Below are positions 7,595 through 60,188 of a stretch of DNA of 64,000 nt, piece after piece. Position numbers and translations under genes: made by a program. The stretch's first letter is position 1. The number at the start of each line of letters is the position of its first letter. The notes under the pieces are model-generated. The model was not told the DNA's origin. It saw only the letters and a list, made by a program, of their open reading frames with translations, and did no database searches. Source of the DNA: a bacterium (lineage in GTDB: Bacteria > Hydrothermota > Tepidihabitantia > Tepidihabitantales > Tepidihabitantaceae); NCBI GenBank assembly GCA_035505375.1, contig DATJQV010000081.1, positions 151,423 through 215,422 on the forward strand, in the 5' to 3' direction.

Positions 7595-7684
7595 TCCATT
7601 CCTCGCAGGGAGCCCGTCCCGGCGCGTTGGTGTTTGGATGGTACATCGGAGTATGTTAGCTTGCGTAACACGAGAGTCAACAGC

Positions 7685-8137
7685 TCATGGCTCACGGCCC
7701 GCAACAAGCGGCTTGCCAAACCTGCCGGCGGCTGTCCGGGGAAGGCGCAACTCCTGCGCGTGTAACCGCTTGGCCGGCTCGCCGATGTCGAACACATCCG
7801 TCCGTATCTTGGCCAGGACCCTAGGATCGCAGCCACGGGCCGCCCGCTTGCCCAGAAGTACCTGAACAGCCATCGCGAAGCTCTCGCCCGAGATGTGCCT
7901 CTGCCGGCTCAGTTTGTAGAGCTGCCGGCCGAAACTGAGGCAAGGGACATGCTGCGAGGTCGAAACCCCGCAGGCGTTTATGACCTCCCTGACATTGGTC
8001 TCCATCGCGCAGAGTTCGGTCATCGCCGCCTCGTAGCGCAGGGCCATTCCCTCGCGATGGTCGTTGAGCGTGTCCTTAACCCGCTCGACCTTGTACTTCG
8101 CCTTCCATCGCGCCGCACTTTTCACCGGGTCAGCCAT
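7685..8137 (-). CDS. Hypothetical small protein (150 aa); a degenerate second copy lies at about 24470-24834
   Basis: ORF with a balanced amino-acid composition. Its 5' end and upstream leader (ttcctccattcgt...) and two internal blocks are repeated almost verbatim near 24480-24790. No family was recognised. Confidence 0.45.
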   Translation of the reverse strand: MADPVKSAARWKAKYKVERVKDTLNDHREGMALRYEAAMTELCAMETNVREVINACGVSTSQHVPCLSFGRQLYKLSRQRHISGESFAMAVQVLLGKRAARGCDPRVLAKIRTDVFDIGEPAKRLHAQELRLPRTAAGRFGKPLVAGREP

Positions 8138-8380
8138 TCTGTTCCTCCATTCGTACTGCCTGTCTCACACCATCGCATTCCTGCATCGGGACCATGAACA
8201 ACTCAGCGTCCGGAAGCCAGAGGCTGGTCTCCAACCAAGAACCGTAGTATTTCAGAGTTCTGAGCCGTTCATTCTGGACTGTTTGTAGTGGAACGTGAAA
8301 TGTGGCAGCTAGATGACGTAAGGCACTCAAATGTAAGACGATAGTCGATGTGACTCATGAATCAGGATAGCACCTACCGG

Positions 8381-8685
8381 GTCACTCCCCGAGCCACTCC
8401 CCCAGTCACTCCCTGAGTGACTCCCCGAGTGAACCGGTAGGTGATCACCCCGTTGAACTGGCGGGTGAACCCCTGGGTCAGTCGGGGGATTAGTTACAGA
8501 CTGAGCTGGGAATTCATCTACCGACTTACTTGCCGGATAACTTAGTGGTTGAGTCGGTAGGTGACCCTAGGGGCGAGTCGTGGGGTGTATTGGTGGGTGA
8601 ACCGCTGGTTGACCTGCCGGATGACCTGCAGACTGACCAGCCGAATGACTTGAGCGGTGACTTGCCTAGTGACCTGCCGAGTCCA
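8381..8685. repeat. 12-nt-periodic tandem array (about 25 units, GTGAC/GTCAC-containing), copy 1
   Basis: Units include cccagtcactcc, ccgagtgactcc, ggtgacttgcct and agtgacctgccg, with a strict 12-nt register. It lies upstream of, and divergent from, the small ORF at 7685-8137. On the plus strand it reads as xDLP tetrapeptides. Confidence 0.8.
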
Positions 8686-8890
8686 ATCGGCAGCGGTTTC
8701 TCGATTCGGGTTCGATACTCTGCGCCGTGCGCTGAATCAAGCGCCGACAATCGCGCTGCTGCTCGTGATGGTTCTGAGAACGATGTGTGGGTCTGCGCAA
8801 TCGCTGAAGAGCGACGCGCTGACCGTTACGCCGGCCGGAGCCTTGGCCGGTGGCTTGCTTCGGGCCTGCGACCGGGCTTTCCGAGAAGTT

Positions 8891-11223
<2,333 letters not shown>

Positions 11224-16387: not shown

Positions 16388-17139
16388 CTAGCTGCGGAGG
16401 ATAGGAACTGGGAGGCGGGATGTCAAGCACGGACAAGAGCCGGTCCCGACGCACCACAACCTATGGTATCCCTCTGCCGCGGTCACCACTATTGCCCGAG
16501 GGAGTGGATGAACCGCCCACTGCCCAGGGGGCGGCAGCCAAAGACAGAATCGACCAAAGTGATGAACAGGGCCTGGAAGAACATATGGGCGGGACTTTGA
16601 GAAGACGTTGGAAGCGATCTGCAGAAGAGCCGACCCTCCGGCCTTCCAACCGAGCGACAAGTGAAGCAACCGAAGAAACGGTTTCTCAAGTAGTTGTGCG
16701 TACCGTCCATGAGGCGCTTCTTTGAAGCCCTCAGAGAGTCCGTGAAGGACCTTTCGCGGCAGCTTTCAGGGGAGCTTCCGGACGAGTTTCGAGAGTAGCT
16801 TTCCCGGTCGCTTTCGGTGGCGGAACTCAGGATGAGGCCTGCCCCCGGTTCAGACTCACTATCTTCGACTCCATCCTTCGGGCACGTCTATCTCGAGCGG
16901 GCGTCCCGACTGCCAGGCTGCGCGGAGGTATTTCACCGGTCACAACTGAACCCACGCCAATGAGGGTGCAGTTGCATGTCCGCGACCCTTGAGGGCGTAC
17001 TCCTGCGCCGCGTAGGGCGGATAGAGCAGTCGCTGATGGACGGACGGTCCTGGACAATCGCCGCTCTCTTGAAGCCTTCGACCGAAGACTTGCATAGTAG
17101 AGACGGAAGCGTCGCCGGCCCCTGGTGAATCATCACACT

Positions 17140-20258: not shown

Positions 20259-20334
20259 GGGGTCTTAGTGTAGCCTGGTTTAACACGCTGCCCTGTCACG
20301 GCAGAGATCGCCGGTTCAAATCCGGTAGACCCCG
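20259..20334 (+). tRNA. tRNA-Asp (anticodon GTC)
   Basis: 76 nt cloverleaf read by hand. Acceptor GGGGTCT pairs with AGACCCC. D stem GTGT/ACAC. Anticodon stem CTGCC/GGCAG with loop CTGTCAC. T stem GCCGG/CCGGT with a TTCAAAT loop. Discriminator G. CCA is not encoded. Confidence 0.85.
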
Positions 20335-20384
20335 TTGCGCGAGGAAGTCCGAATGACGATACTCGAATTCCGACTGAACCCCGA

Positions 20385-21266
20385 ATGAGAGGAAACGTCC
20401 AATTCGGACTTCGCGCTTTCCGCGTATTCACTTGTCATTCGGGTTGCGGGCTTCGAGCTTGCCTGCTGCTCCTGGTGACACTCACCGGGGCGGCCTCGGG
20501 CATTTCCCCCGCGGCAAGGCTGAAGTCCAGCTACGAACTCGCTCTCAATGCCGAACGCCTGACCGAGGCCATTGTCGACAACCATCCCCGCGACATCTAC
20601 CGGATGTTCACGCCGGCGTTTGCCGCCGAGAACTCGTTCGCGAGTTTCGAATCCGCCTTTGTCCGGTGGACTGCCGGCCGCCGTATCGTCCGCGCCAGCC
20701 ACAAGGTCGTAGACGTCAAGGGCCCGGCCGGGTACGTTTCGAGCTGGTTCGTATTCCAGGGCCAGCGCGACTGCAACTATGTCTACCAGAACTGGTTGTA
20801 CACCGACAACGGCTGGGAACTCGTCTGGCTGTCCCGGGTCATGGACACGAGCTTCGCGTATGGCCAGACCGACTCGCTCGAACTGATACGGGTGGCCGAG
20901 GCCGGCGTGCGCTACGTGCTCTCGAGGCCGGGACTCGATCGGTTCCGGGCAGGGTTCAAGCGGCCGGACACCGTTGTGATGGTGCGCCTCGGTCTACCGG
21001 GTGAGGGCGAGTTCCATCTTGACAGCCTGCCGATCTTCTGGACCACGGTGGCGGAGATAAGACAGGGTAGCCACCTGCCAGGCACCCAGTTCCTGCTCAG
21101 CCTCGCGCTGGTCAGGCTCATGGGTGACATGGCTCTCGTGACCGTAGACCTGACTCCGACCGGGTACGCTGTTCTCGGCCGAAAGCACCACCCGCGGGGA
21201 ATCGAGGTCTATCTCGAGCGGGCCGGCGCTGACTGGCGGTTCTACGGCGTCGGGAAGACCTGGTAG
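20385..21266 (+). CDS. Hypothetical secreted protein
   Basis: 293 aa with a hydrophobic signal-like stretch LRACLLLLVTLTGAASG. No family recognised. Confidence 0.4.
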   Translation: MRGNVQFGLRAFRVFTCHSGCGLRACLLLLVTLTGAASGISPAARLKSSYELALNAERLTEAIVDNHPRDIYRMFTPAFAAENSFASFESAFVRWTAGRRIVRASHKVVDVKGPAGYVSSWFVFQGQRDCNYVYQNWLYTDNGWELVWLSRVMDTSFAYGQTDSLELIRVAEAGVRYVLSRPGLDRFRAGFKRPDTVVMVRLGLPGEGEFHLDSLPIFWTTVAEIRQGSHLPGTQFLLSLALVRLMGDMALVTVDLTPTGYAVLGRKHHPRGIEVYLERAGADWRFYGVGKTW

Positions 21267-21461
21267 ACACCGGAAGCTGGAAGTCAGAAACCCGACCGCA
21301 GCCGACTGCGGGACGCGGACTCCATCGACGAGCCCGATGCCGGCAGCGAGAAGCTCGTCCTTCCTGGCACGTCTCCCTTCACTCTTCTCTCTTCTGCTCC
21401 CAGCCGGCGGCGTGAATGGCTCCACGACGGGCCGCGAGGACCTCTTCTACAACCGTTGGCC

Positions 21462-21497
21462 GATGAAAACAGAACCGGACCGGGGTCGCCGGTCCGG
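21462..21497 (-). terminator. Rho-independent terminator for the PDZ-lipoprotein gene
   Basis: A perfect 9-bp GC stem (ccggaccgg / ccggtccgg) with a 5-nt loop. On the minus-strand transcript it is followed by UUCUGUUUUCAUC. It lies about 25 nt after the stop at 21520. Confidence 0.55.
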
Positions 21498-21519
21498 CTC
21501 TCAAGACTCGCTTTCCGTC

Positions 21520-22785
21520 CTACAATTCGCCGATCAGGTTCTGGTACAGACCCATTTGGTCGACCTCGATCAACTCAATCTCGTTCACCGCACGGGCCAG
21601 CTTCTGCTGGCTCTCACGCGTCCCGACCTGAACGCCGCTCTGGATGATCCCCTCGAGCTTGCCGATGATCGCCTGGTTCTTGCCCATGATTGCGTTGATC
21701 AGGTCGCACTGGTCGGGAAGCGCCTCGAGCATGTCCTGCAGGTACCCGTTGGCGCTTTCCTTGTTGGCGAGCAGGGTCCAGATGAGTCGGTCGAAGTCCG
21801 CCCGGCCGCTGTCCTGACTCGCCGGGCAGAACGGTATGGTATCCAGGCTGCGAATCCAGATGTCGTACGCGGCAATGCCTGACTGCCAGCCCGTATCGGC
21901 CGACGCCTGGCCCAACTCAAGCGCCTGAGTCAGCACCGTGGTCAGCATGTCGCCCGGGTCGGGTTCGCCGGTGGCGTGATGAGCGACCTCATACGCCTCC
22001 CTGATCGGTCCGCTCAGCGCCACCTCGCCGCCTGAGCCCAGGGCATAGCCGTGCAGCAGCGAGTCGTTCGGGCCGCACCGCGTCGCGATGCCCCAGCTCT
22101 CGCCGTTGCCGCCGGACCAGGCGCCGAACACCAGTACCGGCTTACCCCGGCCCAACCGCGCGCGGATTGTGGCCAGCGCCTCCCGCTGAGATGGGCCCGC
22201 CGTTCGGGCCGAATCCTGGCCCGGGGCAAGGACGGGTCGGAACGACAAGCCGTAGTACTTCGTGATGGTCTGCAGATAGTGCCCGGCCTGCCCGTCCGGC
22301 CATGCGGCGCGGCAACCGTCGCGCCGGGCGGTGAACGCGAACGACTCACCGGTCAGGGCCGCCAGCCAGTCGTAGTCCACGGTCACGCCGTAATAGGCCA
22401 GGATGTCCTTCAGCGCGACCGCCAGCCCGGCCGGATACCGCTCGGCGTCGGGCAGCACGCCCAGCACGCCGGGGTCGGCCGTGAACGTCTTCTCAGCGTC
22501 GCCGCGCAGCACGGTCATCGGGATCTTCCCCTGAGAACCAACCGACCGAAACTGGAGCTGCACCAGTTCGTCGACGGTCTTCACCGGCTCACCGTTGTAG
22601 GACAAGATGACGTCGCCGGGCGCGAGCCCGAGCGTTTCCGCCTGGGTCCGGGGCAGAACGCGCCAGACTGCCGGCCGCGCGACCTGCGCGTAGGTAGCGC
22701 CTAACGACGGACCGGCCTCCTGCTTCCGGCACGCGACGACCAGCACCAGGGCGACCAGGGCAAAAGTGACAAAGTGCCTATTCAT
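21520..22785 (-). CDS. PDZ-domain lipoprotein, hypothetical
   Basis: Lipobox signal MNRHFVTFALVALVLVVAC and a PDZ-like segment GLAPGDVILSYNGEPVKTVDEL. The ORF is open upstream to 22887. Confidence 0.55.
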   Translation of the reverse strand: MNRHFVTFALVALVLVVACRKQEAGPSLGATYAQVARPAVWRVLPRTQAETLGLAPGDVILSYNGEPVKTVDELVQLQFRSVGSQGKIPMTVLRGDAEKTFTADPGVLGVLPDAERYPAGLAVALKDILAYYGVTVDYDWLAALTGESFAFTARRDGCRAAWPDGQAGHYLQTITKYYGLSFRPVLAPGQDSARTAGPSQREALATIRARLGRGKPVLVFGAWSGGNGESWGIATRCGPNDSLLHGYALGSGGEVALSGPIREAYEVAHHATGEPDPGDMLTTVLTQALELGQASADTGWQSGIAAYDIWIRSLDTIPFCPASQDSGRADFDRLIWTLLANKESANGYLQDMLEALPDQCDLINAIMGKNQAIIGKLEGIIQSGVQVGTRESQQKLARAVNEIELIEVDQMGLYQNLIGEL

Positions 22786-23002
22786 AGATGCTCCTTTTGT
22801 AAGCGGGCTGAGGGGGCGTCCACGTCTGCCATTATGAACCGCAGCCAGGCAAAAGCAAGGAAAAGCTCGGGGAAAAGGACCAGGCACAAAGTGCTAAGGA
22901 CAAAACAATGAGGAAAATGGGAGAGGGCAAAAGTGTGATTCAGGACTTACGACCTGCTTTGTCCTTACGACTTTGCAGTTGCGCGGCGCAGCCGCGCCGC
23001 GC

Positions 23003-24034
23003 TTACGCCGGCTTCGTGCCGACCACCGGCTCACCCAGGCCGGCCGGCGCTTCGAGCCGTACCGAAAGGTCGGCGAGCCCGGCGCAGACCGCCTGCGCCT
23101 GCACGTCGGTCAACGCGGAGTCCTTCAGACGCGGCCACAGGCTCCGGGCCAGCGTCACGGCCGACCACGTAATCCTGACGTTGACGAACCCGGCGTCCTC
23201 CAGCGTTTCCTTCATCGCCTCGCTGGTGAAGTGCTCGAGCTCGTAGAAACTCGCGCCGGTGATAGCCGCCTGATTGCGCTCGAGGAACTGCAGCCCGACC
23301 TCCGGATTGGCCGAAGGGTTTGTGCCGATCCGCTCGACCAGGTCGCGGAGCTTCTGGAACTCCTCCTTCATCTCCGGCGTGTTCGCGAACTTCACGAGGT
23401 AGTTCCGCTCCCACGGCGGCCGCGTGTGCTTCAGCGAATAGTGGTAACCGAGCGAATCCGTCGTCTCGGTCAGCATCATGTCCTCGCTCAACTCACGCTC
23501 GCGCCCCTCGCTCGCCTCGAAGAAGACGCGGAACCGGCCGCCCGGCTTCAGCACGCGGAACACCTCGGCAATCGCCTTGTACGGATCCGGGCTCTGCTCG
23601 ATGGAAGTCGCGGCCACGACGCCGTCGAACCGGTTGTCGGGGAAATCGAGCCCGGTAACCGGCACCTTCTTCACCGTGACGTTCTTCAACCCGAGCTTCT
23701 CGGCGCCGGCGGTAATGGCATCCACCCGGCGCTGCGACGGCTCGGCGCCGGTCACGGCCCTGAACAATGGCGCGAGGCGGAGCAACGGCCAGCCGTCGCC
23801 GGGCCCGATGTCCAGAATGTCCTGGGCGCCACCCATGTGCGAGGCGAAGTCACGGATTTGCGCCTCGTCGAGGAAATGCTGCTCCAGCCCGTACTCAATC
23901 GGAACGTCGATGACCGGCAGCTTCCCGCCGCCCTGCCGCTCCATACGGTCAAAAGTCTGCTCTGCGCTGTTGGACTCGACCGGCTTGGCAGTATTGACAA
24001 TCCAAGTCTCAAGAACGGTGTATTTCTTCGCCAT
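23003..24034 (-). CDS. Class I SAM-dependent methyltransferase
   Basis: DILDIGPGDGWP (motif I), the acidic motif II and VLKPGGRF. The start is taken at MAKKYTV. Confidence 0.7.
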   Translation of the reverse strand: MAKKYTVLETWIVNTAKPVESNSAEQTFDRMERQGGGKLPVIDVPIEYGLEQHFLDEAQIRDFASHMGGAQDILDIGPGDGWPLLRLAPLFRAVTGAEPSQRRVDAITAGAEKLGLKNVTVKKVPVTGLDFPDNRFDGVVAATSIEQSPDPYKAIAEVFRVLKPGGRFRVFFEASEGRERELSEDMMLTETTDSLGYHYSLKHTRPPWERNYLVKFANTPEMKEEFQKLRDLVERIGTNPSANPEVGLQFLERNQAAITGASFYELEHFTSEAMKETLEDAGFVNVRITWSAVTLARSLWPRLKDSALTDVQAQAVCAGLADLSVRLEAPAGLGEPVVGTKPA

Positions 24035-24469: not shown

Positions 24470-24834
24470 CGGCCAAGCTAGGTCGAAGACGTCCGTATCT
24501 TGGCCAGGACCTGACGCGCCCACGGCGCGAGTTACCAGTTTCCAGTTGGCAGGTTGCAGGATTCAGACGGCGGGATCGGAAGGCATTGCGTCGAGACCCC
24601 GCAGGCGTTGATGACCGCTTCGCCCTTGGTCTACATGGCGCATACCCGGGGAATGGTTGCTTCGTAGCGCACGGCCAAGTCTTCGCACAGGTCGCCAAGC
24701 GTCTCCCCGACTCGTTTCAGGTTGTACCTAGCCTTCGAGCGGACCGCTCTCTTCTTCTGGTCAGTCATATCGTTCCTCCATTCGTGTCTTGCTTGTTGCA
24801 ACGCCATAGTACCAGAGCGTATTCCATCCATCAA
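24470..24834 (-). pseudogene. Degenerate, internally deleted copy of the small ORF at 7685-8137
   Basis: The first roughly 35 codons are conserved (KARYNLKRVGETLGDLCEDLAVRYEA versus KAKYKVERVKDTLNDHREGMALRYEA). The frame is then lost. Downstream DNA retains the blocks cgtccgtatcttggccaggacc and ccccgcaggcgtt(g/t)atgacc found in copy 1. Confidence 0.55.
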
Positions 24835-24910
24835 CTGGCGCTATCAACAAGCATAAGCTATTGATATTTAAGGTGATAATTGGCATGCAGAGTCACCCGC
24901 GCCAGCACTC

Positions 24911-25222
24911 GGTAAGTCACTCCCCCAGTGATTCCCCCAGTCACTCCCCCAGTGACTCCCCCAGTCACTTACCGAGTGACTTACCGAGTCACTTGCCTGG
25001 TGAGTCACCGAGTGACTGGGCGAGTGACTCGCCTGGTGACTTACCGACTGACATGGTAAGTGACATGCCCAGTTACTTGCCCAGTGAGTTGCCGAGTGAC
25101 TTACCCAGTGACTCGTCTAGTGAGTCGGCAAGTGACTTGCCTAGTGACACGCCGAGTGACTCGCCGAGTGAATTACCTAGTGAATTACCGAGTGGTTTGC
25201 TGAGTGGTTTGCTGAGTAGTTT
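24911..25222. repeat. 12-nt-periodic tandem array (about 26 units), copy 2; possibly the coding part of a Ser-x-x-Pro tetrapeptide-repeat ORF (24885-25250, plus strand)
   Basis: Units cccagtcactcc, ccgagtgactta, cctagtgacacg and others in perfect register. In the plus frame they read SHSP SDSP SDLP SELP. The fourth codon varies ccc/ccg/cct, which is synonymous. AAGGTG lies 9 nt before the ATG at 24885. Confidence 0.75.
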
Positions 25223-25415
25223 GAAGACGGGTATGCAGCGTGTCGGCTGATTGGGCGCTGACCATGGCCTTGATCATTCCAAGGACGGCAGCTTGCGGCG
25301 GTATATAGACACCAGGAATGCAGGAAGCCATCCAGCAAGCTCTTGGACGAACAATCTATGGAGCCTTCTGGCGAGCAGCGGAGCCAGTCCCGACCGGTGC
25401 TGTTGAGGCCGCGCT

Positions 25416-26834
25416 CTAGCGCGTCAGGACCACCTTTCGGACAGCTTGCGCTTGAGCTTCTCGCACGAAGTACACGCCGGGGCTGAGGCGGCTCACGTCA
25501 TTCGCGCCCGCCATCAGGCCCATCACCTTCCGCCCGCTCACGTCCAGCAGGCTTGCGGCTTGTGGCTTGCAGCTTGCGGCTTCCGGAAGGAACAGCGCTC
25601 CGCGAACGACCGTCGTGGCCGGCTTGCGGCTTGAGGCTTGTGGCTTGAGGCTCTCTTCTACCCCTGAGGCGCACAGATAGCTGCCCCAGATCTGCTGGTC
25701 ACTGCTCTGCCATATGCACCAGTGTTCGGTAACACCGACTGTGGTCATGGTCGGGTTGGTCTTCCGCGCGGAGTCGATGCACACCGGAACGTCCTGGCTC
25801 GAGAACATTGTCCGCGAGTAGATATCAGAACCTCCGTTCCGGTTCGACACCCACGCCACCGCAGCCTGATTCCAGGACTCGGTCGTGTACTCGGCCGGAG
25901 TTCCGCAGGGCGTGAAGTTGCTGCCGGCTCCGCTTGAGTCGCACCACCGTCGTCCGACCGAGAACGTGTCCATCGCTGTGCCGTAGACAGCCGTGTCGCC
26001 GTCGCGCGTCGATTCCCATGTAATCCATGGTCCCAAAGCGACCGGCGTCGGGCCGTAGCTTATCACATCGGGATTGCGGTCCAGCGCCGCCGAGTGCGCG
26101 ACCTCCTGCGGCGTCAGCCAGGACCCACTTACGTACTCGCTGTAGAAGATGTCGCCGTGTGTCTCCCAGACGAGCAGCGGGCAACCATAGTAGAGCCCGT
26201 GGTAGCCGCGGCCGAGCCGCGCGTGGCGAATCGTGTCGACCTGGACCACCGCAGCCCGCTGCGTCGTCCACGAATCACCGCCGTTGAACGAATAGTCGAT
26301 GTGCCAGCCGTCCGTATCCTGACAGGTCCAAGTCACCCAGGCCGTGTCGTACGGGCTGCCGTGTCTGATGGCCATCACCTGCGGCCACGTCGAATCGACG
26401 CCGGCAGTTTTGCCGGAACCGACCAGAACCCGTGAACTCCACGCCTGTCCGGCCGTGTCGAATTGCGCGTAGATATCAGCCGTACCGGCGGGGTGCTCCC
26501 AGACGCAGCAGAAAACAGGCCTGCCCGAAGACGCGTCATTAACGCAGGCGACGGCAGGGTTGACTGCAGCCAGGTTTCCGGAGATTAGTGTAGCAGGCCC
26601 CCACCCGTTGCCGTCAGTGAATGAACAGAGCTGACCGAACACTTCCCAGCGGACGCCACTGGCGAAGGACTGCCAGACCATGCACGTCGTGTCACCGAAC
26701 ACCCATTCCTTGCAGGCCGACGGCTTGATGCCGCCGATGCTGTCGCCCAAGAGGAACGGCCCGGTCCAGCCCTGCGCTGCCGCGTGGGGTGGGACTAAAG
26801 CGCAGAGAATCAAAACTATGATGCAGAACCTCAA
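25416..26834 (-). CDS. BNR/Asp-box repeat secreted protein with a C-terminal T9SS/FlgD-Ig-like sorting domain
   Basis: Signal peptide, Trp-rich repeats with S-x-D-x-G-x-T-W boxes (SFNGGDSWT) and a CTD ending ANDVSRLSPGVYFVREAQ...VVLTR. Confidence 0.65.
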   Translation of the reverse strand: MRFCIIVLILCALVPPHAAAQGWTGPFLLGDSIGGIKPSACKEWVFGDTTCMVWQSFASGVRWEVFGQLCSFTDGNGWGPATLISGNLAAVNPAVACVNDASSGRPVFCCVWEHPAGTADIYAQFDTAGQAWSSRVLVGSGKTAGVDSTWPQVMAIRHGSPYDTAWVTWTCQDTDGWHIDYSFNGGDSWTTQRAAVVQVDTIRHARLGRGYHGLYYGCPLLVWETHGDIFYSEYVSGSWLTPQEVAHSAALDRNPDVISYGPTPVALGPWITWESTRDGDTAVYGTAMDTFSVGRRWCDSSGAGSNFTPCGTPAEYTTESWNQAAVAWVSNRNGGSDIYSRTMFSSQDVPVCIDSARKTNPTMTTVGVTEHWCIWQSSDQQIWGSYLCASGVEESLKPQASSRKPATTVVRGALFLPEAASCKPQAASLLDVSGRKVMGLMAGANDVSRLSPGVYFVREAQAQAVRKVVLTR

Positions 26835-29450: not shown

Positions 29451-30725
29451 TTACCTGACCACCACGACCCTCCTGACTCCCGCGCGCTCGTGGCCTACTC
29501 CTCCATCTCCCACAAAGTACACGCCCGGCGCAAATCGCGACACATCGTTTGCGCCTATATGCAGCTCCGCCACTCTGCGCCCCGCCGCATCCAGCAGGCT
29601 TGCGGCTTGTGGCTTGCGGCCTGAGGACTGCCGCAGCAACAGGACGTTCCTGACGACTGAGGGAATTCTCGACAGGCTGCTGACTGCCGACTGCTGCGGC
29701 GCATCGCTCAGTGCGGCAACGCCCACCCCGTGGGCGACGTGAATGGAACCGTCGCTCAAGCGGTATGCGATCACGGGCTGTGAAAGTGAATCGGTCGTTA
29801 TGTCACAGCAGGTGATACTGACGCCGCTCAAGACCACCTGTATCGGCTCATGGAGCAAGTCGAACTCCAGCGCATTGTTGCCTACCCATACGCACTGCAC
29901 GCGGCCGGAGCCGTCCAGGCAGGCCGCGCCGATGGAAGTGTAACCGTCCAGTCGCACCCCATCGCAGACAAGTTCATCAGTCCCGTAAGGGTCGCCTGCC
30001 GACCAGAGTGTGTGAATGCTGTCGGAGCTGTCAGCCAACGCCGCAAACCCGCAACCGCCGCCGTCGAGTCCGCCCGCTCCGCCGAAGTCTGTCCAGACAC
30101 CGTTGTCTCGTCGTTTGAGAGAGACGTCGTAACCGTCAATCAAGCCACCCTCGGTCCACACGTCGGCCTCAATGAGTGCGCAGTTGCCGTTCCGGCGCCA
30201 ACCCGGGCGGGTAAGGGAATACGTGTTGCTATCCGTCATGTAGACAACATTCGTATCCCAGGAGGAATCAGTCTTCAGGCCAAGACACCCGCGCCAGAGG
30301 CTGTCCTTGAACGTAAGCGATGGCCGACCGGCCGGGTCATAGCTTAAGGCCGCATCTCTCATGGGCATCGGTAGTTGCTCAGATGACCAGACGGAGTCTC
30401 TGCGTTCGGCGAGTCGTCCCGATCCCACTACGCCCATCACATCTCCAGGCCCGATGTCAAACGAGAAAGGCGGCCGGACGAGCGACGTATCCAAGTCTTC
30501 GTACCACCACCCCGCGTCCGCGTGCGCAAGCCGGATGACGGAATCGCGGTTCTCGTAGGCGAGCCAGATGGTCCCGTCACTCGTCTTGTCAATGGTCACG
30601 TACGACCCAATGCTCCCATTGTCCACCAGTGCGAAGGTCCAATAGCCTGCACGGCAGATGGTCGCGACCGTGGCAATGGCGACCACGGATATTTGAAGAC
30701 GCCGGCAGAAGTCAAACGTTGCCAT
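29451..30725 (-). CDS. Secreted T9SS-CTD protein, paralog 3 of 3
   Basis: The start is taken at MATFDFCRRLQISVVAIATVATICRAGYWTFALVDNGSIGSYVTIDKTSDGTIWLAY. The ORF is open upstream to 30989, probably without meaning. Confidence 0.55.
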   Translation of the reverse strand: MATFDFCRRLQISVVAIATVATICRAGYWTFALVDNGSIGSYVTIDKTSDGTIWLAYENRDSVIRLAHADAGWWYEDLDTSLVRPPFSFDIGPGDVMGVVGSGRLAERRDSVWSSEQLPMPMRDAALSYDPAGRPSLTFKDSLWRGCLGLKTDSSWDTNVVYMTDSNTYSLTRPGWRRNGNCALIEADVWTEGGLIDGYDVSLKRRDNGVWTDFGGAGGLDGGGCGFAALADSSDSIHTLWSAGDPYGTDELVCDGVRLDGYTSIGAACLDGSGRVQCVWVGNNALEFDLLHEPIQVVLSGVSITCCDITTDSLSQPVIAYRLSDGSIHVAHGVGVAALSDAPQQSAVSSLSRIPSVVRNVLLLRQSSGRKPQAASLLDAAGRRVAELHIGANDVSRFAPGVYFVGDGGVGHERAGVRRVVVVR

Positions 30726-37657: not shown

Positions 37658-38815
37658 TCACTCCTTTTCGGTTCGGGTCAAGAAACGTTCGACATGATCC
37701 CGCCTTGGCATGGATGGTTCAGCGCCCATGATGGTGCAGGCGAGAGCGCCGCAGGCGTTGGCGAATCGCACAGCTTCATCAAGGCTGGCACCCTCGGCAA
37801 TTCTCACCGCCAATCCGGCGCGGAACGCATCCCCAGCGCCGGTCGTGTCCACGACGTTCACCTTGTGCGCCGGGAACCGGGTCAGCGCGGCGCGGTCAAC
37901 TGCCAGCGCGCCTTCTTCGCCGAGTGAGATAACCACGCCCTGCCGCGTCTCGGGCAGAAGCACAGCCGCCGCTTCCTCCGGCGTCATCCTGCCGGTCAGC
38001 ATGTGGGCTTCGATTTCGTTGGGCACAAGGTAGTCAAAGTAGAAGTCGTCCAGTGGTCTCGTGGTCGAGTGTTCCGGCATCTCCGTTCTGGAACTCTGGC
38101 TTCTGCCCCCTTCTGTCTGACTTGGTGCCTTTGCGTCTTGGTGGTGAAATCCGTCTCCGCAATTCTGGTTTCTAGTTTCTGGTTTCTGGTCTCTGGTTTC
38201 TCCGTCCGCCTTTGTGTCTTCGTGTCTTTGTGGTGAATCCCCGCAATTCTGGACCCTGGACTCTGGATTCTGGATTCTGGATTCTTCCTGTCCTCCATGC
38301 CTCACCGGCGCAGGGTCGAGCAGCACCAGTGTTCCGTGCTTCCGGGCAATCTCGGCGGCACGCCGCGACGCTGCCAACGGTATCTCGAACTGGAGCATCA
38401 GGATGTCGGCGAGGGCAATCTGCTCCTCTACCGCGAGCACATCCTCGGGCGTCACGCGCATGTTGGCCCGCGGCGCGGCGATGATGCTGTTCTGCCCGTT
38501 CTCGTCCACGACCGGCGTGGCAATCGCGGTTCCCGCCTCAGGGTCGCGGGTCACGCCACTCAGGCAGATTCCTTCCTGCTCCAGCTTGGCGACGAACATG
38601 TCACCGAACGGGTCGCGGCCGACCCGACCGACGATGCACACGTCAGCGCCCAGTCGCCTCGCTCCGACCGCCTGGTTGAACCCCTTGCCGCCGAGGAACA
38701 TACCGAAGTCTTCGGCCAGCATCGTCTCGCCCGGTCCGGGCCGGTGCTTCACTCTAAACATGAGGTCGGTCACGAAGCTCCCGACAACCAGAACGCGAGG
38801 CCGGTCGCCTTTCAT
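37658..38815 (-). CDS. PfkB/ribokinase-family sugar kinase carrying an in-frame insertion of about 75 aa
   Basis: N-terminal GGKGFNQA and C-terminal DTTGAGDAF motifs. Between LDPAPV and DDFYFDYLVPNE, where E. coli RbsK has about 8 residues, lies about 75 aa of low-complexity sequence. It is encoded by heptamer and 35-nt repeats at 38090-38300. Confidence 0.7.
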   Translation of the reverse strand: MKGDRPRVLVVGSFVTDLMFRVKHRPGPGETMLAEDFGMFLGGKGFNQAVGARRLGADVCIVGRVGRDPFGDMFVAKLEQEGICLSGVTRDPEAGTAIATPVVDENGQNSIIAAPRANMRVTPEDVLAVEEQIALADILMLQFEIPLAASRRAAEIARKHGTLVLLDPAPVRHGGQEESRIQNPESRVQNCGDSPQRHEDTKADGETRDQKPETRNQNCGDGFHHQDAKAPSQTEGGRSQSSRTEMPEHSTTRPLDDFYFDYLVPNEIEAHMLTGRMTPEEAAAVLLPETRQGVVISLGEEGALAVDRAALTRFPAHKVNVVDTTGAGDAFRAGLAVRIAEGASLDEAVRFANACGALACTIMGAEPSMPRRDHVERFLTRTEKE

Positions 38816-41616: not shown

Positions 41617-41908
41617 GCTATTCTGTAGGTTATTCTCCAGCTTACCCGGAGAGCAATTCCGAGGATTGCTCCGCAGGCAATCCGGTGAGGAATCCGGAGA
41701 GCTACCTGGTCTGCTCTTCGGTCAGTTGCTCGGCGGGCTATTCGGAGAGGAACTCGGCGAGCTATCCGGAAAGCTGCCGGGAGGGTAATTGGAAGAGCTC
41801 CTCCTCAGATTGCCCGGAGAATAGCCGGGCAAGTAACTCGGAAAGCAACCTCCCGAGCAACTGTGCGGACAATCCGGAGAACTACCGGGCGGGCTATTCG
41901 GAAAGTAG
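41617..41908. repeat. 12-nt (24-nt super-period) tandem array, a different motif family (xGCTATYCGGAR); possibly part of a tetra/octapeptide-repeat ORF (41478-41993, plus strand)
   Basis: About 24 units, for example ggctattcggag aggaactcggcg agctatccggaa agctgccgggag. Differences between units at positions 3, 6 and 12 are almost all transitions (c/t, a/g), as expected for synonymous third-codon sites in the plus frame. Confidence 0.7.
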
Positions 41909-42023
41909 CATGCCCAAACCTCAGCCCAGCAGCCTGGTCAGTTCCAGCCGACTACCTCGGTCAGAACGACCTTGCGGATGGCTTGCGGCTTGAGGCTTGG
42001 AGCTTGGGGCAGAGTGGCCTCGG

Positions 42024-45546: not shown

Positions 45547-45615
45547 CAGGGGATTCGGATAATCCAGAATCCAGAGTCCAGAGCTCAGAATCCAGAATCG
45601 ACGGACGGGACGAGG

Positions 45616-45975
45616 ATGAGGGACTTCCGATCGGACCTGAGCGAACGGCTGCTAGACTTCGCGGTCAGCGTCGTTGCGCTCGCCCCGCGTCTGCAGCGCT
45701 CGGCAACCGGTCGTTTCATGGTGGGGCAACTGGTGCGTTCTGCTTCCTCAGCAGGTGCGAACTTCCATGAAGCTTGTGGTGCCGAAAGCAGAGCCGACTT
45801 CGCACATAAGATGCAGGTGGTCCTCAAGGAATTGCGCGAGACCGAGTACTGGTTGAAGCTGGTCACGCGGGCAAAACTGCTTCCGACCGATCTGCTGTCG
45901 GAACCATTGGCTGAGGCGGACGAGTTGATCAGAATCGTGGTGAAGTCCGTTGTCACTGCCAAGTCGAGACCCTGA
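45616..45975 (+). CDS. Four-helix-bundle protein (PF05635 family), copy 2
   Basis: FAVSVVALAPRL...VRSASSAGANFHEACGAESRADFAHKMQVVLKELRETEYWL. Confidence 0.7.
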   Translation: MRDFRSDLSERLLDFAVSVVALAPRLQRSATGRFMVGQLVRSASSAGANFHEACGAESRADFAHKMQVVLKELRETEYWLKLVTRAKLLPTDLLSEPLAEADELIRIVVKSVVTAKSRP

Positions 45976-46041
45976 TGTCGGGTTTGTCAATTCTGGGTTC
46001 TAGTCTCTGGATTCTGAATTCTGGACTATCCGGAGTCCGCC

Positions 46042-47259: not shown

Positions 47260-48013
47260 AGCGACCAGGGATGAGGGACTAGGGGCTAGGGGTCAGGTTT
47301 CGGACCCTGACCCCCAACCCCTGACCCCTGACCCCTCGGTCGTGCTCCGCGCGACCGACGTATGGCGCGTGTTCGAGACCGGGGCTGAGCGTCTGGAAAT
47401 CCTCCGCGGCGTGAACCTGGAGGTCAGCCGAGGCGAGCTGGTGGCGATTCTCGGCCCTTCGGGAACCGGCAAATCTACCCTCCTGCACGTGCTCGGAGCG
47501 CTGGATCGCCCCACAAGAGGCCGAGTGTTCCTTGATTCAGCTGACGTTTTCAGCTACCCTGAGTCCAAGCTCCACGAACTGAGAAATCGGAAGCTCGGGT
47601 TCGTGTTCCAGTTTCACCACTTGCTGTCCGAGTTCACGGTTCTGGAGAACGTGGCAATGCCGCTGCTTGTTGCGGGCGTGGCTCGGCCCGAGGCGATGGA
47701 CCGTGCGCACCGCGTGCTCGAGGACGTCGGATTCCTGACCCGGCTCACCCACCGGCCGTCCGAGCTATCGGGCGGAGAAAAGGCGCGGGCGGCAGTGGGA
47801 CGCGCGCTGGTGAATAACCCGGCGGTGATTCTCGCCGACGAGCCGACCGGCAACCTCGACACGACCTCGGCGGCGGCGCTGGTTGACCTGATGGTGCGAC
47901 TGAGCAGCGAAAGGAAAATGACGATTCTGGTAGTGACTCACAATCAGTCCGTCGCCGACCGAGCGACACGCCGGCTCCATCTAGCCGAAGGAAGACTCAC
48001 GGAGGAGAGGTGA
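47252..48013 (+). CDS. lolD: Lipoprotein-release ABC transporter ATP-binding protein LolD
   Basis: Walker A GPSGTGKST, LSGGE signature and ILADEPTGNLD. ATGA overlap with lolE. The first 30 codons run through a GGGGYTA/GGGGTCA heptamer element. An alternative GTG start lies at 47342. Confidence 0.8.
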   Translation: MSEATRDEGLGARGQVSDPDPQPLTPDPSVVLRATDVWRVFETGAERLEILRGVNLEVSRGELVAILGPSGTGKSTLLHVLGALDRPTRGRVFLDSADVFSYPESKLHELRNRKLGFVFQFHHLLSEFTVLENVAMPLLVAGVARPEAMDRAHRVLEDVGFLTRLTHRPSELSGGEKARAAVGRALVNNPAVILADEPTGNLDTTSAAALVDLMVRLSSERKMTILVVTHNQSVADRATRRLHLAEGRLTEER

Positions 48014-49743: not shown

Positions 49744-51260
49744 GGCAGAAGGGGTCAGGGGTCAGGGGTCAGGGGTCAGAAGCTGGAAGTCAGAATAAGC
49801 AGACCGGACTGCGCGGACTTCCGTCGGTGGACAAACTTCTCAGTGACGAGACGCTCGCGCCCGTGCTCGCGCAAGTCCACCGCCGCATGGCGGTGCGGGC
49901 AATCCGAGCCTATCTCGACGAGCTACGGGAGAACCTGAAAGAGCCGCAACACGCAGACGGCAAGCCCCAAGCGTTCTCAATGGCGGAGTTGCTGCGCCGA
50001 CTCGAACGAGAGCGCAAGCCGACGCTGGCGCGCGCCATCAATGGCCTTGGCGTCATTCTGCACACTGGGCTGGGGCGCGCGCCGCTGTCCAAGGCTGCAC
50101 AGGAAGCGCTTACTGACGTGAGCGAGCACTTCTCCAGCCTTGAAATCGACATCGAGACCGGACGGCGCGGCAGCCGCTACCGGCACATCGAACCGCTGCT
50201 GTGCGAACTGACGGGCGCTGAGGCGGCGATGGTCGTCAACAACAACTGCGCGGCTACCTTGCTAATCCTGTCCGGGCTGGCCAAAGGCAAAGAGGCGATT
50301 GTCTCGCGCGGCCAGCTTGTCGAAATCGGCGGCGCGTTCCGAATCCCCGACGTGATGATGCAAAGCGGATGCAAGATGGTCGAGGTCGGCACGACCAATC
50401 GCACTCACCTGCGCGACTACAATAATGCCATCACTCCGGAGACGGCGCTCCTGCTCCGGGTTCACACCTCCAACTACAAGATTACCGGGTTCACCAAGGA
50501 AGTAAGCCTCGAAGAGATGGTAGCTCTCGCCCAAGAGGTCAATCGCTCGCCCCTCGCCCCTCGCCCCTCGCCCCTCCTCGTCGTGGACGACCTCGGTTCA
50601 GGGGCGCTCGTCGACCTTTCGAAGTACGGCCTGCCCAAGGAACCGCTGGTACAGGAATCGGTCAAGGCCGGAGCGGACGTCATCTGCTTCTCCGGGGACA
50701 AACTCATTTCCGCGTCGCAAGCCGGCATCATCGTCGGCAAGAAGAAGCACATCGACCTGCTGAAGAAGCATCCGCTCACCCGGGCCATGCGCTGCGGCAA
50801 GCTCACCTACGCCGTGCTCGAACGGACACTGGAGCTGTTCCTTGACGAGGAACGCGCAGTCAAGGAACATGCGCTCTTCCAGTTACTGCTGAAGACCACG
50901 GACCAGATGCAGGGCGAAGCCGATGAACTCGTGCGCCGGGTTCAGTCTCTTCTCCCTCTCCCTCTCCCTCCGGGAGAGGGTTGGGGTGAGGGCGACAACG
51001 TCGTGGCCAAGTTCACCGTCAGACCTGCTCTTTCCGAAATCGGCGGCGGCTCACTCGCGACCGAGAGCCTCGAATCGCGGGTAGTTGCCATCACGCCGAA
51101 GACGATGCATGTCGACGAGCTGGCCCGTCGCATGCGTCTCAATCGGCCCCCGGTGTTCGGCCGGGTCGAAAAGGGCGAATACCTGCTCGACTTCCGTACC
51201 CTCCGCCGCGACGAAATCCCCATTATCTCTTCCGCGCTCCTCTCCGCTTTCCAGCAGTAG
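49740..51260 (+). CDS. selA: L-seryl-tRNA(Sec) selenium transferase SelA
   Basis: PLP fold with the lysine in FSGDKL. A GTGA overlap with the mcsB stop. The N-terminus and two internal sites contain heptamer or palindromic insertions. Confidence 0.75.
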   Translation: MRQKGSGVRGQGSEAGSQNKQTGLRGLPSVDKLLSDETLAPVLAQVHRRMAVRAIRAYLDELRENLKEPQHADGKPQAFSMAELLRRLERERKPTLARAINGLGVILHTGLGRAPLSKAAQEALTDVSEHFSSLEIDIETGRRGSRYRHIEPLLCELTGAEAAMVVNNNCAATLLILSGLAKGKEAIVSRGQLVEIGGAFRIPDVMMQSGCKMVEVGTTNRTHLRDYNNAITPETALLLRVHTSNYKITGFTKEVSLEEMVALAQEVNRSPLAPRPSPLLVVDDLGSGALVDLSKYGLPKEPLVQESVKAGADVICFSGDKLISASQAGIIVGKKKHIDLLKKHPLTRAMRCGKLTYAVLERTLELFLDEERAVKEHALFQLLLKTTDQMQGEADELVRRVQSLLPLPLPPGEGWGEGDNVVAKFTVRPALSEIGGGSLATESLESRVVAITPKTMHVDELARRMRLNRPPVFGRVEKGEYLLDFRTLRRDEIPIISSALLSAFQQ

Positions 51261-57362: not shown

Positions 57363-57410
57363 GATTGGGGCTAGGGGTTAGGGAATAGGGGTTAGAGAGG
57401 ACACGGGAGG

Positions 57411-57791
57411 ATGAAGGGTCCCATTCGGAGCTACAAGGACCTCGTGGTCTGGCAAGAGGCTATCACCTTGGTCGAGCTGACATATGGACTCGCGCGGGAA
57501 TTGCCTGCAAGTGAGAGGTTCGGACTAATATCCCAGATGACGAGAGCCGCCGTATCGGTGCAGGCTAACATTGCCGAAGGCCATGGTTCCCGACACCGGG
57601 CCGTCTATCTGAATCACCTGTCCATCAGCAAGGGTTCGTTGGTCGAACTAGAGACGTACATTATCCTGGTCGTGAAGCTGGGTTTCGTGAAGCCGGACCG
57701 CACCGCAAAGATCCAGGGCAAGATTGATGATGTCGGGAGGCTGTTGAGCGCTCTTGTGCGAGCGCTCCGCGTCTCCGTCGACCGTTCCTGA
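57411..57791 (+). CDS. Four-helix-bundle protein (PF05635 family), copy 3
   Basis: YKDLVVWQEAITLVELTYGLAR...QMTRAAVSVQANIAEGHGS...LSISKGSLVELETY. Confidence 0.7.
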   Translation: MKGPIRSYKDLVVWQEAITLVELTYGLARELPASERFGLISQMTRAAVSVQANIAEGHGSRHRAVYLNHLSISKGSLVELETYIILVVKLGFVKPDRTAKIQGKIDDVGRLLSALVRALRVSVDRS

Positions 57792-57800
57792 CCCTAGTCC

Positions 57801-58625
57801 CTAACCCCTAATCCCTAGTCCCTTACCCGCTCGCCTCTTGGGCGAGAAGAGCAGGCACAGCCCGAACAACGCGCTCGACGTTACTATGATGACCGCGCCC
57901 GCCGGGGCGTCAGTCAACCACGAGACGAGTAGTCCAATCAGGCACGACAGAATCCCAAACAACGCCGAAAGCAAGTACATGGTCCTCAGCCGATAGGTCA
58001 ACTGGTACGCTGCTGACGGTGGGTTGACGATGAGGCTGAAGATGAGGAGCCCGCCGATGGTGCTCAAGTTGGCGGTTACCGACAGGCCGCACAAGACCAG
58101 CATTGCGAAGAAGAGCGCTCGCTCGGGTATCCCGACCGCGCGGGCGATTTCCCGGTTGTAGAGCACGGCCTGGATTTCCTTGTAGAACAGCCAGAGAAAC
58201 AGCAGCACCACTACTGCCGCGCCGGCCATCACCGCGAGGTCGCGCCCGGCCACGAGCAGGATGCTGCCCCATATCAGGCCGAGAGCGTTGGCGCGTGAGC
58301 CGCGCATCAGGCCGATGGCAAGAAAGGCGAGGCCGAGCACGAGCGAGAAGATGATGCCAAGCGAGACATTGGGTTCGATGTCAGCGCGCTCGGCAACCGG
58401 GCCGACGAGGAACGACGCGGCGATGCAGAAGACCGCGGCGGTAATGAGCGGGTTTACTCCGAGCAGCAGTCCGGTTACCGCACCGGCAAAGGCCGCGTGC
58501 GACATCGCCACCCCGACAAATGGTATGTTCATCATCACGACCCAGACCCCGACGATGCCGCAGACCAGCCCTCCGAGAACTGCGGCAGCAAGCGGCCGCC
58601 AGAGTATGGCGAGTTCAGGCGGCAT
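57801..58625 (-). CDS. znuB: ABC-3 family metal (Zn/Mn/Ni) transporter permease
   Basis: 274 aa with 8-9 TM helices. Confidence 0.75.
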   Translation of the reverse strand: MPPELAILWRPLAAAVLGGLVCGIVGVWVVMMNIPFVGVAMSHAAFAGAVTGLLLGVNPLITAAVFCIAASFLVGPVAERADIEPNVSLGIIFSLVLGLAFLAIGLMRGSRANALGLIWGSILLVAGRDLAVMAGAAVVVLLFLWLFYKEIQAVLYNREIARAVGIPERALFFAMLVLCGLSVTANLSTIGGLLIFSLIVNPPSAAYQLTYRLRTMYLLSALFGILSCLIGLLVSWLTDAPAGAVIIVTSSALFGLCLLFSPKRRAGKGLGIRG

Positions 58626-59349: not shown

Positions 59350-59375
59350 TCGTTCCTCGCCCTGACCCCTGGCCC

Positions 59376-60188
59376 CTAGTCCCCGGCCCCTGTCCCAACT
59401 GCCTGCGCCAGCGCCGATGCGTTGTCGAGCAGCGCCTGGCGGTAGGACCCGTGCAGCGGGAAGTTGGTCAGGGTGACGTGCTTTGCCTTGAGCGCCTCGG
59501 CGAGCGGCCTGCCCGCGTCCGGGCCGGATTGCAGATTATCGACGACGAGGCTTGCGCCGGAGTCGAGCGCGACGCGAGCCAGGCGGGTGAGTCCCTGAGC
59601 GGTGAAGTCCTCGGCCCGACCAAAGGTCGCCACCACCCGGAATCCGAGTGACGCGACGAACGGCGCCTGCTGGTCAGCCGCGATTACCGCCGGCAGTTGC
59701 TTTCCTGCGAGCAGCGTCCGTGCGGCAACCGCGGCCGAGTCGACATCGGCCCCGTAGCGCAACCCTGCCAGCCGATATGTGTCGGCGTGCCCCGGGTCGA
59801 GTCCCTGCAACAAGGTGGTAATTTCAGCGGCTGCCTGCTTCTGTAGTTCGGGAATCATCCAGTTTCCCTGTGTCGCAAGCGTCACTCTCCTCGGGCCGGG
59901 CGGGATGATCGCCTTCTCCAGCGCCGGGTACCAGGCTTCCCAGCCGTGGTTCAGGATGAGCCGGGCGTTGTTCGCCGCAGTCACATCCGACGGCTTCAGG
60001 TCGAACTGCCCCGGACACAGCCCGGCCGGGGCAATGGTAGTGACTGCGAATCGGTCACCGCCAATCGTTTGTACAATCGTGCTGATGAGCGTGGTAGAGG
60101 CGACCACACGGATTCGGCCTGACGGCCGGGCGCAACCGAAGATCGTAACCCCGACGAGGAACAATCGCATCAAGAGCTTCTTTGCCAT
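59376..60188 (-). CDS. znuA: TroA/ZnuA-family metal-binding periplasmic lipoprotein
   Basis: Lipobox IFGC and the ZnuA/TroA fold pattern. The start is taken at MAKKLL. Confidence 0.7.
   Translation of the reverse strand: MAKKLLMRLFLVGVTIFGCARPSGRIRVVASTTLISTIVQTIGGDRFAVTTIAPAGLCPGQFDLKPSDVTAANNARLILNHGWEAWYPALEKAIIPPGPRRVTLATQGNWMIPELQKQAAAEITTLLQGLDPGHADTYRLAGLRYGADVDSAAVAARTLLAGKQLPAVIAADQQAPFVASLGFRVVATFGRAEDFTAQGLTRLARVALDSGASLVVDNLQSGPDAGRPLAEALKAKHVTLTNFPLHGSYRQALLDNASALAQAVGTGAGD

Follow-up and report, generated by a model that had tools for sequence, protein, structure and literature searches.

A multicopy bacterial module that pairs a homologue of Adnaviria capsid proteins with a divergent array of phased 12-bp units

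Introduction

What does a small reading frame accompanied by a divergent array of 12-nt repeats do in a bacterial chromosome, and is such an array a second gene or a series of binding sites for the protein encoded beside it? The question is raised by a stretch of 64,000 nt (here called the window, meaning the whole of the DNA that was analysed) from a genome of 3.6 Mb with 62% G+C. A sequence-only reading of the window had described the pair as a duplicated and possibly mobile module, present just twice, whose copies were decaying in alternate halves, and it had left two options for the array: a binding-site series for the small protein or a gene for a disordered protein made of Ser-x-x-Pro (SxxP) tetrapeptides.

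The answer that we propose involves the realm Adnaviria, whose hallmark, an alpha-helical capsid protein, packages DNA in its A-form. According to a 2024 review (PMC10848233), this protein is exclusive to Adnaviria, a realm with no connection to bacteria. The asymmetric unit of PFV2 consists of a capsid-protein heterodimer with 12 bp of A-form DNA (PMC7189273), and AFV1 likewise has 12 bp per repeat (PMC5517147). A search of the literature turned up neither a homologue of the SIRV2-type capsid protein in bacteria or other cells nor an account of 12-bp arrays in candidate division WOR-3, the group of bacteria in whose genomes the module occurs.

Results

Two copies of the module in the window

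The 150-aa ORF, the 12-nt array, the leader shared by two loci and the broken second copy that had been described are all present in the window (Table 1). The leader, ttcctccattcgt, is found at both 8141-8153 and 24773-24785, and in copy 1 a GGAGG ribosome-binding site lies within it. An alignment of 13 modules identifies a stretch of ~95 bp in the copy-1 leader region that is particular to the copy-1 subtype, as well as a conserved junction (TAAG..ATAGT box) directly preceding array 1. A scan for a sigma-70-type promoter between the gene and the array found none, and the Rfam search across the whole window returned a single tRNA and nothing else.

Table 1. Positions of the two module copies and their parts in the 64,000-nt window.
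Feature	Position	Strand	Description
Whole copy-1 module	7595..8890	.	1296-bp insertion; pseC start at 7594, pseB stop at 8891
Promoter-like site (TTGACT, 16 nt, TAACAT)	7653..7680	-	Module edge, faces pseC; consensus match only
Copy-1 gene, 150 aa	7685..8137	-	Member of a ~123-aa family, homologues of Adnaviria major capsid proteins
Copy-1 leader and junction region	8138..8379	.	Delimited from the alignment of 13 modules
Array 1	8380..8691	.	26 units x 12 nt, core (G/A)GT(G/C)A(C/A), divergent from gene
Copy-2 gene remnant	24470..24768	-	N-terminal ~61 codons with in-frame TAG, then internal deletion
Copy-2 leader and conserved junction	24769..24902	.	GATAAT box at 24875-24880
Array 2	24903..25214	.	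26 units x 12 nt, consensus AGTGACT + TGCCG, open in SxxP frame

The reading frame of the copy-1 gene is open, yet it has a 27-aa read-through tail, and its product is altered at four near-invariant positions of the family (Y63H, Y66C, N68S, and W98R); the protein looks to be under relaxed constraint. In the copy-2 gene, the in-frame TAG falls at codon 46 and the homology ends after about codon 61, with a short 3' block that is homologous again after a gap, which is consistent with an internal deletion.

Both arrays in the window are periodic far above chance: T[GC]A occurs at one 12-nt phase in 19 of the 26 units of array 1 and in 22 of the 26 units of array 2, while 2000 shuffles gave a mean of ~2 and a maximum of 5-6. 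Array 1, which had been thought decayed, is a variant of the GGTGA(A/C)C type with 81-84% identity to two other arrays of the genome (C66:69912 and C24:14704), and its 26 units in unbroken register, as many as in array 2, indicate a sequence variant and not a ruin; array 2 is 92% identical to C66:25888-26216. The proposal of decay in alternate halves is not borne out either, since it is copy 1 that keeps the full register of its array and at the same time has a gene altered at conserved residues and extended by a read-through tail.

The 12-nt unit is constrained as DNA

Statistics drawn from 214 units of nine arrays describe the unit as A G T [G>C] A C T followed by Y R C C G, with core frequencies of A.87, G.87, T.97, G.71 or C.20, A.97, C.76, and T.85. 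The information content is mirror-symmetric around unit position 4, from which it follows that a 7-bp palindrome, AGT-N-ACT, forms the core, which recurs every 12 bp and is completed by a 5-nt spacer. The orientation of the core may flip (GTGAC or GTCAC) while the register is kept, and the core is retained as the spacers drift, which argues for constraint. Along the whole array, C is enriched in the spacers of one strand. As RNA, the array strand folds strongly (z -10), because its units are palindromic.

The copy-2 array is, as the sequence-only reading had it, open in the SxxP frame (24861-25250). In the arrays, the codons of this frame are almost exclusively AGT for Ser and TTA for Leu (TTG being used as well), contrary to the long ORFs of the genome. 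Unit position 3, which would be the wobble base of Ser, is T in 97% and C in 1% of the units; in the long ORFs, AGT makes up 7.8% of Ser codons, with an AGT/(AGT+AGC) ratio of 0.22, and TTA and TTG account for 0.9% and 8.5% of Leu codons, respectively. The start codon is not conserved among the copies either: the array on C34 has a TAG five codons past its ATG, those on C75 and C78 have their sole ATG out of frame, and the one on C14 has no ATG, and gene callers left the equivalent region uncalled in six metagenome contigs. The near-invariant T at the wobble position and the lack of a conserved start lead us to consider the SxxP "protein" a by-product of a constraint on the DNA, and the open frame is best read as the result of a repeat that happens to be free of stops.

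A small protein with the fold of archaeal filamentous-virus capsid proteins

The homologues of the copy-1 protein are hypothetical proteins of ~123 aa from WOR-3 metagenomes, with 156 matches at E <= 0.001 in a database clustered at 90% identity and 822 representatives at 50% identity. The copy-1 protein itself gave no Pfam domain above threshold (Sulf_coat_C reached only E 0.1), PHROGs and NCBIfam gave no significant match, and a scan of IMG/VR with one family alignment returned no relative. A profile of 97 family members, compared with the PDB, matched the capsid proteins of SSRV1 (6wq0_A, E 1.3e-8) and SIRV2 (3j9x_A, E 5.2e-8) over nearly their full length, together with those of SFV1 (6d5f_a, E 3.7e-5) and the AFV1 coat proteins, and its eight best PDB matches were all Adnaviria capsid proteins. 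Sulf_coat_C (PF12193) is matched by 68 of the 97 members, with a best E of 1e-7.

An AlphaFold model based on 32 homologues is all-helical (pLDDT 75), with helices at residues 4-14, 17-56, 60-79, 85-100, and 105-116, that is, a predicted four-helix bundle preceded by a long, basic helix at the N-terminus. We compared this model with all 48,161 PDB representative chains. The best match was SSRV1 (VIA-align Z 13.1, 120 residues aligned, rmsd 4.5), and the others at the top were AFV1 ORF140 (Z 12.3), the C-terminal domain of SIRV (Z 11.4, rmsd 2.1), AFV1 ORF132 (Z 9.9), 5w7g_B (Z 9.5), and SFV1 (Z 9.3). These six best chains are capsid proteins of archaeal filamentous viruses, the first unrelated chain appears at Z 7.5, and Foldseek ranked the same capsid proteins first as well. 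The profile matches and the modelled fold together show homology with the Adnaviria capsid proteins, beyond a common helical bundle. The sequence-only reading had named a well-known family with no link to repeats as evidence against it, but the family indicated here is one directly linked to a 12-bp period. A complex prediction with two copies of the 123-aa protein had a score of 0.00, which counts neither way. It is important to note that the flanks of the genes are chromosomal and non-viral and that the family is found in every one of the 35 sampled genomes of the window's order, so that we speak of a capsid-protein homologue and not of a capsid protein.

Linkage between gene and array

In the window's genome, all 13 arrays of the GTSAC type adjoin the gene or its 5' remnant (the first ~60 codons), always divergently, and 17 of the 21 paralogues have an upstream 12-periodic array, each with its own core. 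The same arrangement recurs in other WOR-3 genomes, where a 12-periodic array lies within 1 kb upstream at 37 of 45 loci and downstream at none of 38. Across genomes, the motif classes, namely (A/G)GTGA(C/A), GCGAYT, GGTCTC, GGTCTA, and singletons, follow the clades of the protein tree; this agreement could reflect the co-inheritance of neighbours instead of recognition.

The gene family is more widespread than the arrays. Each of the 35 genomes sampled from the order has it, with 3 to >21 copies, and it was found in not one of 165 genomes belonging to the phylum's other orders. No periodic array was found upstream at 10 loci from the order's other families, nor at 20 loci from six further genera within the window's own family, and the genomes that bear arrays are those with the highest copy numbers of the family gene. 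It follows from this narrower distribution that the gene family is the older of the two and that the array joined it later, and the protein family at large does not need it. A scan of the phylum with a TSA x6 pattern gave genomes with multiple matches mostly in the order, many members of which had none; the pattern is only a weak correlate.

The arrays may also have a life of their own, since only 22 of the ~174 12-periodic arrays in the genome (167 of them outside long ORFs) have a recognisable family gene at a distance of no more than 600 nt. The arrays of the AAAGCTC class form a repeat family in its own right, ~80% identical and without the gene; a search for hidden family genes beside them found none, and their flanks consist of more periodic DNA. 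A family of HTH-type ORFs of 250-390 aa is located beside seven other arrays.

Copies, insertion, and spread

The number of copies had been underestimated. A tblastn search of the protein against its own genome gave 37 matches, ~21 of them near full length; arrays of the GTSAC type occur at ~13 places, and there are more modules with other motifs. Many of the module copies are located at contig ends. The pair is not an assembly duplication: the two copies in the window are ~71% identical over 196 nt only, their flanks are unrelated, and independent wetland-metagenome contigs recover the window sequence and break inside the arrays. The read-level material for this organism consists of three wetland DNA runs. 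In the wetland contigs, array 2 shows indels of +12 and -24 nt, a possible source of which is the 92%-identical C66 paralogue.

In a genome of the same genus (G009), the stop of pseB and the start of pseC overlap with no insert between them, from which we conclude that the copy-1 module is an insertion within the pseB-pseC operon. The homology between modules is limited by the 3' end of the gene on one side and the distal end of the array on the other. The deletion derivative represented by copy 2 is common to copies on C78 and C66, and because these truncated copies have one breakpoint and one extra segment in common, the derivative itself must have multiplied. The module behaves as a proliferating insertion that has increased in number in this genome both as intact copies and as internally deleted ones; this upholds the idea of a repeated, two-part unit. 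An IS- or MITE-type element is not supported: the insertion is real, but the ends of the insert (7595-8890) showed neither terminal inverted repeats nor a flanking direct repeat or target-site duplication, and its interior has no transposase.

Downstream of intact clade-I copies, and on the same strand, there are accessory genes, including toxin-antitoxin pairs (MNT/HepT, Gp49/HTH, DUF4258/MqsA-like, and DUF433/PIN) and a restriction enzyme (XhoI).

Discussion

The array is most likely a phased binding track of the neighbouring protein and not a second gene, and, of the two options left by the sequence-only reading, the evidence favours the binding-site series, with the small protein as its predicted ligand. 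We regard as moderately probable an explanation in which the module is a single unit, composed of the gene of a DNA-wrapping protein and a phased binding track, and the protein builds a filament with one dimer per unit over its own control region. According to this explanation, the track would be non-coding and would offer ~26 phased sites, in divergent orientation, ~150-250 bp upstream of the gene; the footprint known from the viruses, 12 bp of A-form DNA per dimer, would apply to the bacterial protein too, so that one two-fold-symmetric homodimer would sit on each 12-bp unit, with AGT-N-ACT as the palindrome that it reads. By polymerising with its neighbours, each dimer would contribute to a ~310-bp filament that covers the gene's own control region together with a conserved outward TATAAT-like box, and the outcome may be autoregulation or local silencing.

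A broader hypothesis, which we put forward as possible but doubtful, is that domesticated or ancestral capsid proteins of the Adnaviria type serve as sequence-phased chromatin, with paralogue-specific A-form filaments on the ~170 arrays that amount to ~2% of the genome. If this were true, the family would be the first relative of the Adnaviria hallmark protein to be known from cells, and the direction of its origin, from cell to virus or from virus to cell, would become directly testable.

Other explanations have to be weighed against a protein that binds its own track. The arrays might be an independent, lineage-specific element resembling a satellite, to which the capsid-like genes became adjacent by co-mobilisation or by a preference in insertion, and they might then act as structural or regulatory DNA or as sites for another factor, such as the HTH protein encoded beside seven of them. 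The large excess of arrays over those near a family gene, the gene-less AAAGCTC class, and the family genes of other genera that lack arrays all agree with this explanation. We nevertheless consider it rather unlikely, because the linkage is one-sided (upstream and divergent at 37 of the 45 foreign loci, as opposed to none of 38 downstream), because the same motif class accompanies the same protein clade again in different genomes, because the 12-bp period is the known dimer footprint of the capsid fold, and because a two-fold-symmetric core is what a homodimer would be expected to read. The modules might also be what is left of filamentous WOR-3 viruses after integration, with a true capsid gene and an array that is a packaging or nucleation signal. 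This possibility would account for the homology in sequence and fold, for the tandem paralogue pairs at some loci, which recall viruses with heterodimeric capsids, and for the many degraded copies. It seems very unlikely to us, given that the flanks contain no other virus-like genes but pseB/pseC, toxin-antitoxin pairs, and an ECF sigma factor, that the homology between modules ends with the gene and the array, that PHROGs yielded no match, and that the family is universal and multicopy among the sampled genomes of the order.

That the array is a divergent gene for a disordered, acidic protein of Ser/Pro tetrapeptide repeats, as had also been suggested, is highly improbable, even though several features speak in its favour: the SxxP frame is open across nearly all GTSAC arrays, Pfam reports a borderline PT-repeat match (27.8 bits, with the cut-off at 26.2), conservation is lowest at unit positions 9 and 12, where the third bases of codons would fall, codon 3 is never a stop in the 214 units, the observed indels are of 12 or 24 nt, and some copies have an ATG ~8 nt past a TATAAT-like box. 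The suggestion is contradicted by the codon bias, by the mirror symmetry of the conservation at the DNA level, by a start that varies from copy to copy, and by the empty gene calls, and the arrays of other paralogue clades would encode quite different "peptides". Finally, tandem short direct and inverted repeats directly upstream of the gene of a small DNA-binding protein are also the layout of a plasmid-style partition cassette, in which a centromere-like array is served by a small adaptor (as in parC/ParR or the omega heptads); such a cassette is scarcely credible here, as neither the two window copies nor those intact copies that were inspected have a ParA- or ParM-type NTPase as a neighbour, the module exists in dozens of chromosomal copies, and the modelled fold is a helical bundle and not a ribbon-helix-helix.

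A large chromosomal family in bacteria with significant homology in sequence and fold to the Adnaviria capsid proteins gives a handle on the origin of these proteins. If binding of the protein to its array is confirmed, the module would represent a natural, sequence-addressed filament of A-form DNA within a cell, a new way for bacteria to organise their DNA or control genes, and a ready-made system for studying filament nucleation. The modules and their arrays also account for a class of repeats that break assemblies in these genomes.

Relation to known DNA-coating systems

Among the small proteins that bind repeat arrays are ParR, acting on parC of plasmid R1, and the omega protein of pSM19035, whose sites are 7-bp heptads in direct and inverted orientation. 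The module resembles both in having many short contiguous repeats upstream of the gene of the putative binder and in orientations that flip in register, and by analogy cooperative coating and autoregulation would be expected. It differs from them in its 12-bp units, which are not of 7, 10, or 11 bp, in a predicted fold other than ribbon-helix-helix, in the lack of a partner NTPase, and in being chromosomal and highly multicopy. On the proposed reading, the protein would also be comparable to H-NS and Rok, as a small protein that polymerises along DNA from preferred sites, and the accessory genes (toxin-antitoxin pairs and a restriction enzyme) that adjoin intact module copies extend this parallel. 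However, H-NS and Rok have no relation to the bacterial family in sequence or fold, and their sites are AT-rich and non-phased, whereas the WOR-3 arrays are GC-rich and strictly phased at 12 bp.

The closest relatives are the Adnaviria major capsid proteins (SIRV2, SSRV1, AFV1, SFV1, and PFV2; PF12193 Sulf_coat_C, PF21660, and PF25647), with profile similarity over nearly the full length, a similar size of ~120-135 aa, the predicted combination of a long N-terminal helix with a C-terminal four-helix bundle, and, in the HMM alignment, a common N-terminal motif resembling R-(Y/W)-x-K-W-x-A-K-(F/Y). The DNA beside the bacterial gene has a period of 12 bp, equal to the footprint of the Adnaviria dimer. 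Unlike the capsid genes, which belong to archaeal viruses, the bacterial family is encoded in WOR-3 chromosomes, is universal in the sampled genomes of one order with 3 to >21 genes per genome, and has no other viral genes nearby. To our knowledge, the viral capsid proteins coat whole genomes with no known sequence phasing; the bacterial module, in contrast, has a dedicated, sequence-phased track of ~310 bp.

Edges of the inserted module and array 1

The copy of the module inserted between pseB and pseC splits the pseB-pseC-pseF operon, and a promoter-like site at its pseC edge (see the table below) could, judging from its sequence, restore transcription of the downstream half. At the start of array 1, the 12-nt-periodic array of this copy, the GTCAC and GTGAC units form an inverted repeat, and the array thus opens with a larger dyad, whose centre lies near 8407. 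It is general in arrays of this class that the first three to five units have C5 spacers.

Features of the window and inspected loci of the same genome, G000 (window positions unless a contig, C, is named)
Feature	Position	Strand	Remarks
Promoter-like TTGACT-16-TAACAT	7653-7680	-	Edge of inserted module, directed into pseC
29-nt inverted repeat, 83% complementary	8371-8443		Arms: first GTCAC and following GTGAC units of array 1
Further 12-nt-periodic array	near 16640-16820		Weak
tRNA gene	20259-20334		
Third 12-nt-periodic array	41620-41910 (C81:193042-193332)		Units like (G/A)AGCTA(C/T)CCGG
7-/8-nt tandem runs	25550-25652, 29597-29620, 38163-38285, 41980-42010, 45561-46025, 47263-47336, 49750-49779, 50546-50576, 57367-57823, 59360-59396, 61978-62005		
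126-nt (252-nt) tandem repeat	62485-64000		At least 12 copies; continues past window end
Clade-I module flanks L139, L140	C24:69970-72070, C34:671-1470		Inspected with flanks L017-L023
Four-gene locus L137	C42:62388-64826		
Four-gene locus L138	C15:9519-11433		

Other arrays, repeats and a variable segment

The third array of the window is placed within a gap of about 870 bp without genes, and no capsid-like gene adjoins it. About 174 12-nt-periodic arrays, this one included, are present in the genome and can be sorted into several motif classes: AAAGCTC, GGAGCAACCCGG, GGAAGTAACCCG, CCAGAGGCTCTG and GCGCCTATT. The segment beside the tRNA gene (20335-23356) may be strain-variable: in contigs from the wetland metagenome run X1 the match to the window ends at 20334 and restarts at 23357, depth being close to nil over the interval, and in a second such run, X2, this stretch is covered.

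Short tandem runs are also numerous in the window and are often close to gene ends; their units are 7 nt (GGCTTGC, TTCTGGT, AATCCAG, AGGGGTC, CTCGCCC and others) or 8 nt (CACAAAGA) long. One set lies within the C-terminal part of a 472-aa ORF (25416-26834); a 7-nt period is odd for coding DNA. The long tandem repeat at the window end codes for a recurring motif with the pattern ..NKVYCAN..SDNVTVIDG.TDSVIATV.., and its predicted product is apparently an ordinary repeat protein of the beta-propeller type.

Gene neighbourhoods of capsid-like genes

Behind the intact modules of clade I, one clade of the capsid-like family, toxin-antitoxin pairs are found on the same strand (L017-L023, L139 and L140), of the types MNT/HepT, Gp49-like/HTH_3, DUF4258/MqsA-like and DUF433/PIN. 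These neighbourhoods further include a DUF4143 AAA ATPase and an endonuclease of XhoI type. Near-identical strains differ in the content of these cassettes.

A second arrangement, conserved at two loci of the genome (L137 and L138), has a 12-nt-periodic array followed by four genes. Paralogue A of the capsid-like family comes first and paralogue B third, with an ECF-type sigma factor (domains Sigma70_r2 and r4_2) between the two; the last gene codes for a conserved protein of 76 aa that lacks a Pfam match. Neighbouring capsid-like paralogue pairs are also found in other genomes (e.g., G021, G027 and G189), and such adjacent pairs are reminiscent of lipothrixviruses and tristromaviruses, whose capsids are heterodimeric.
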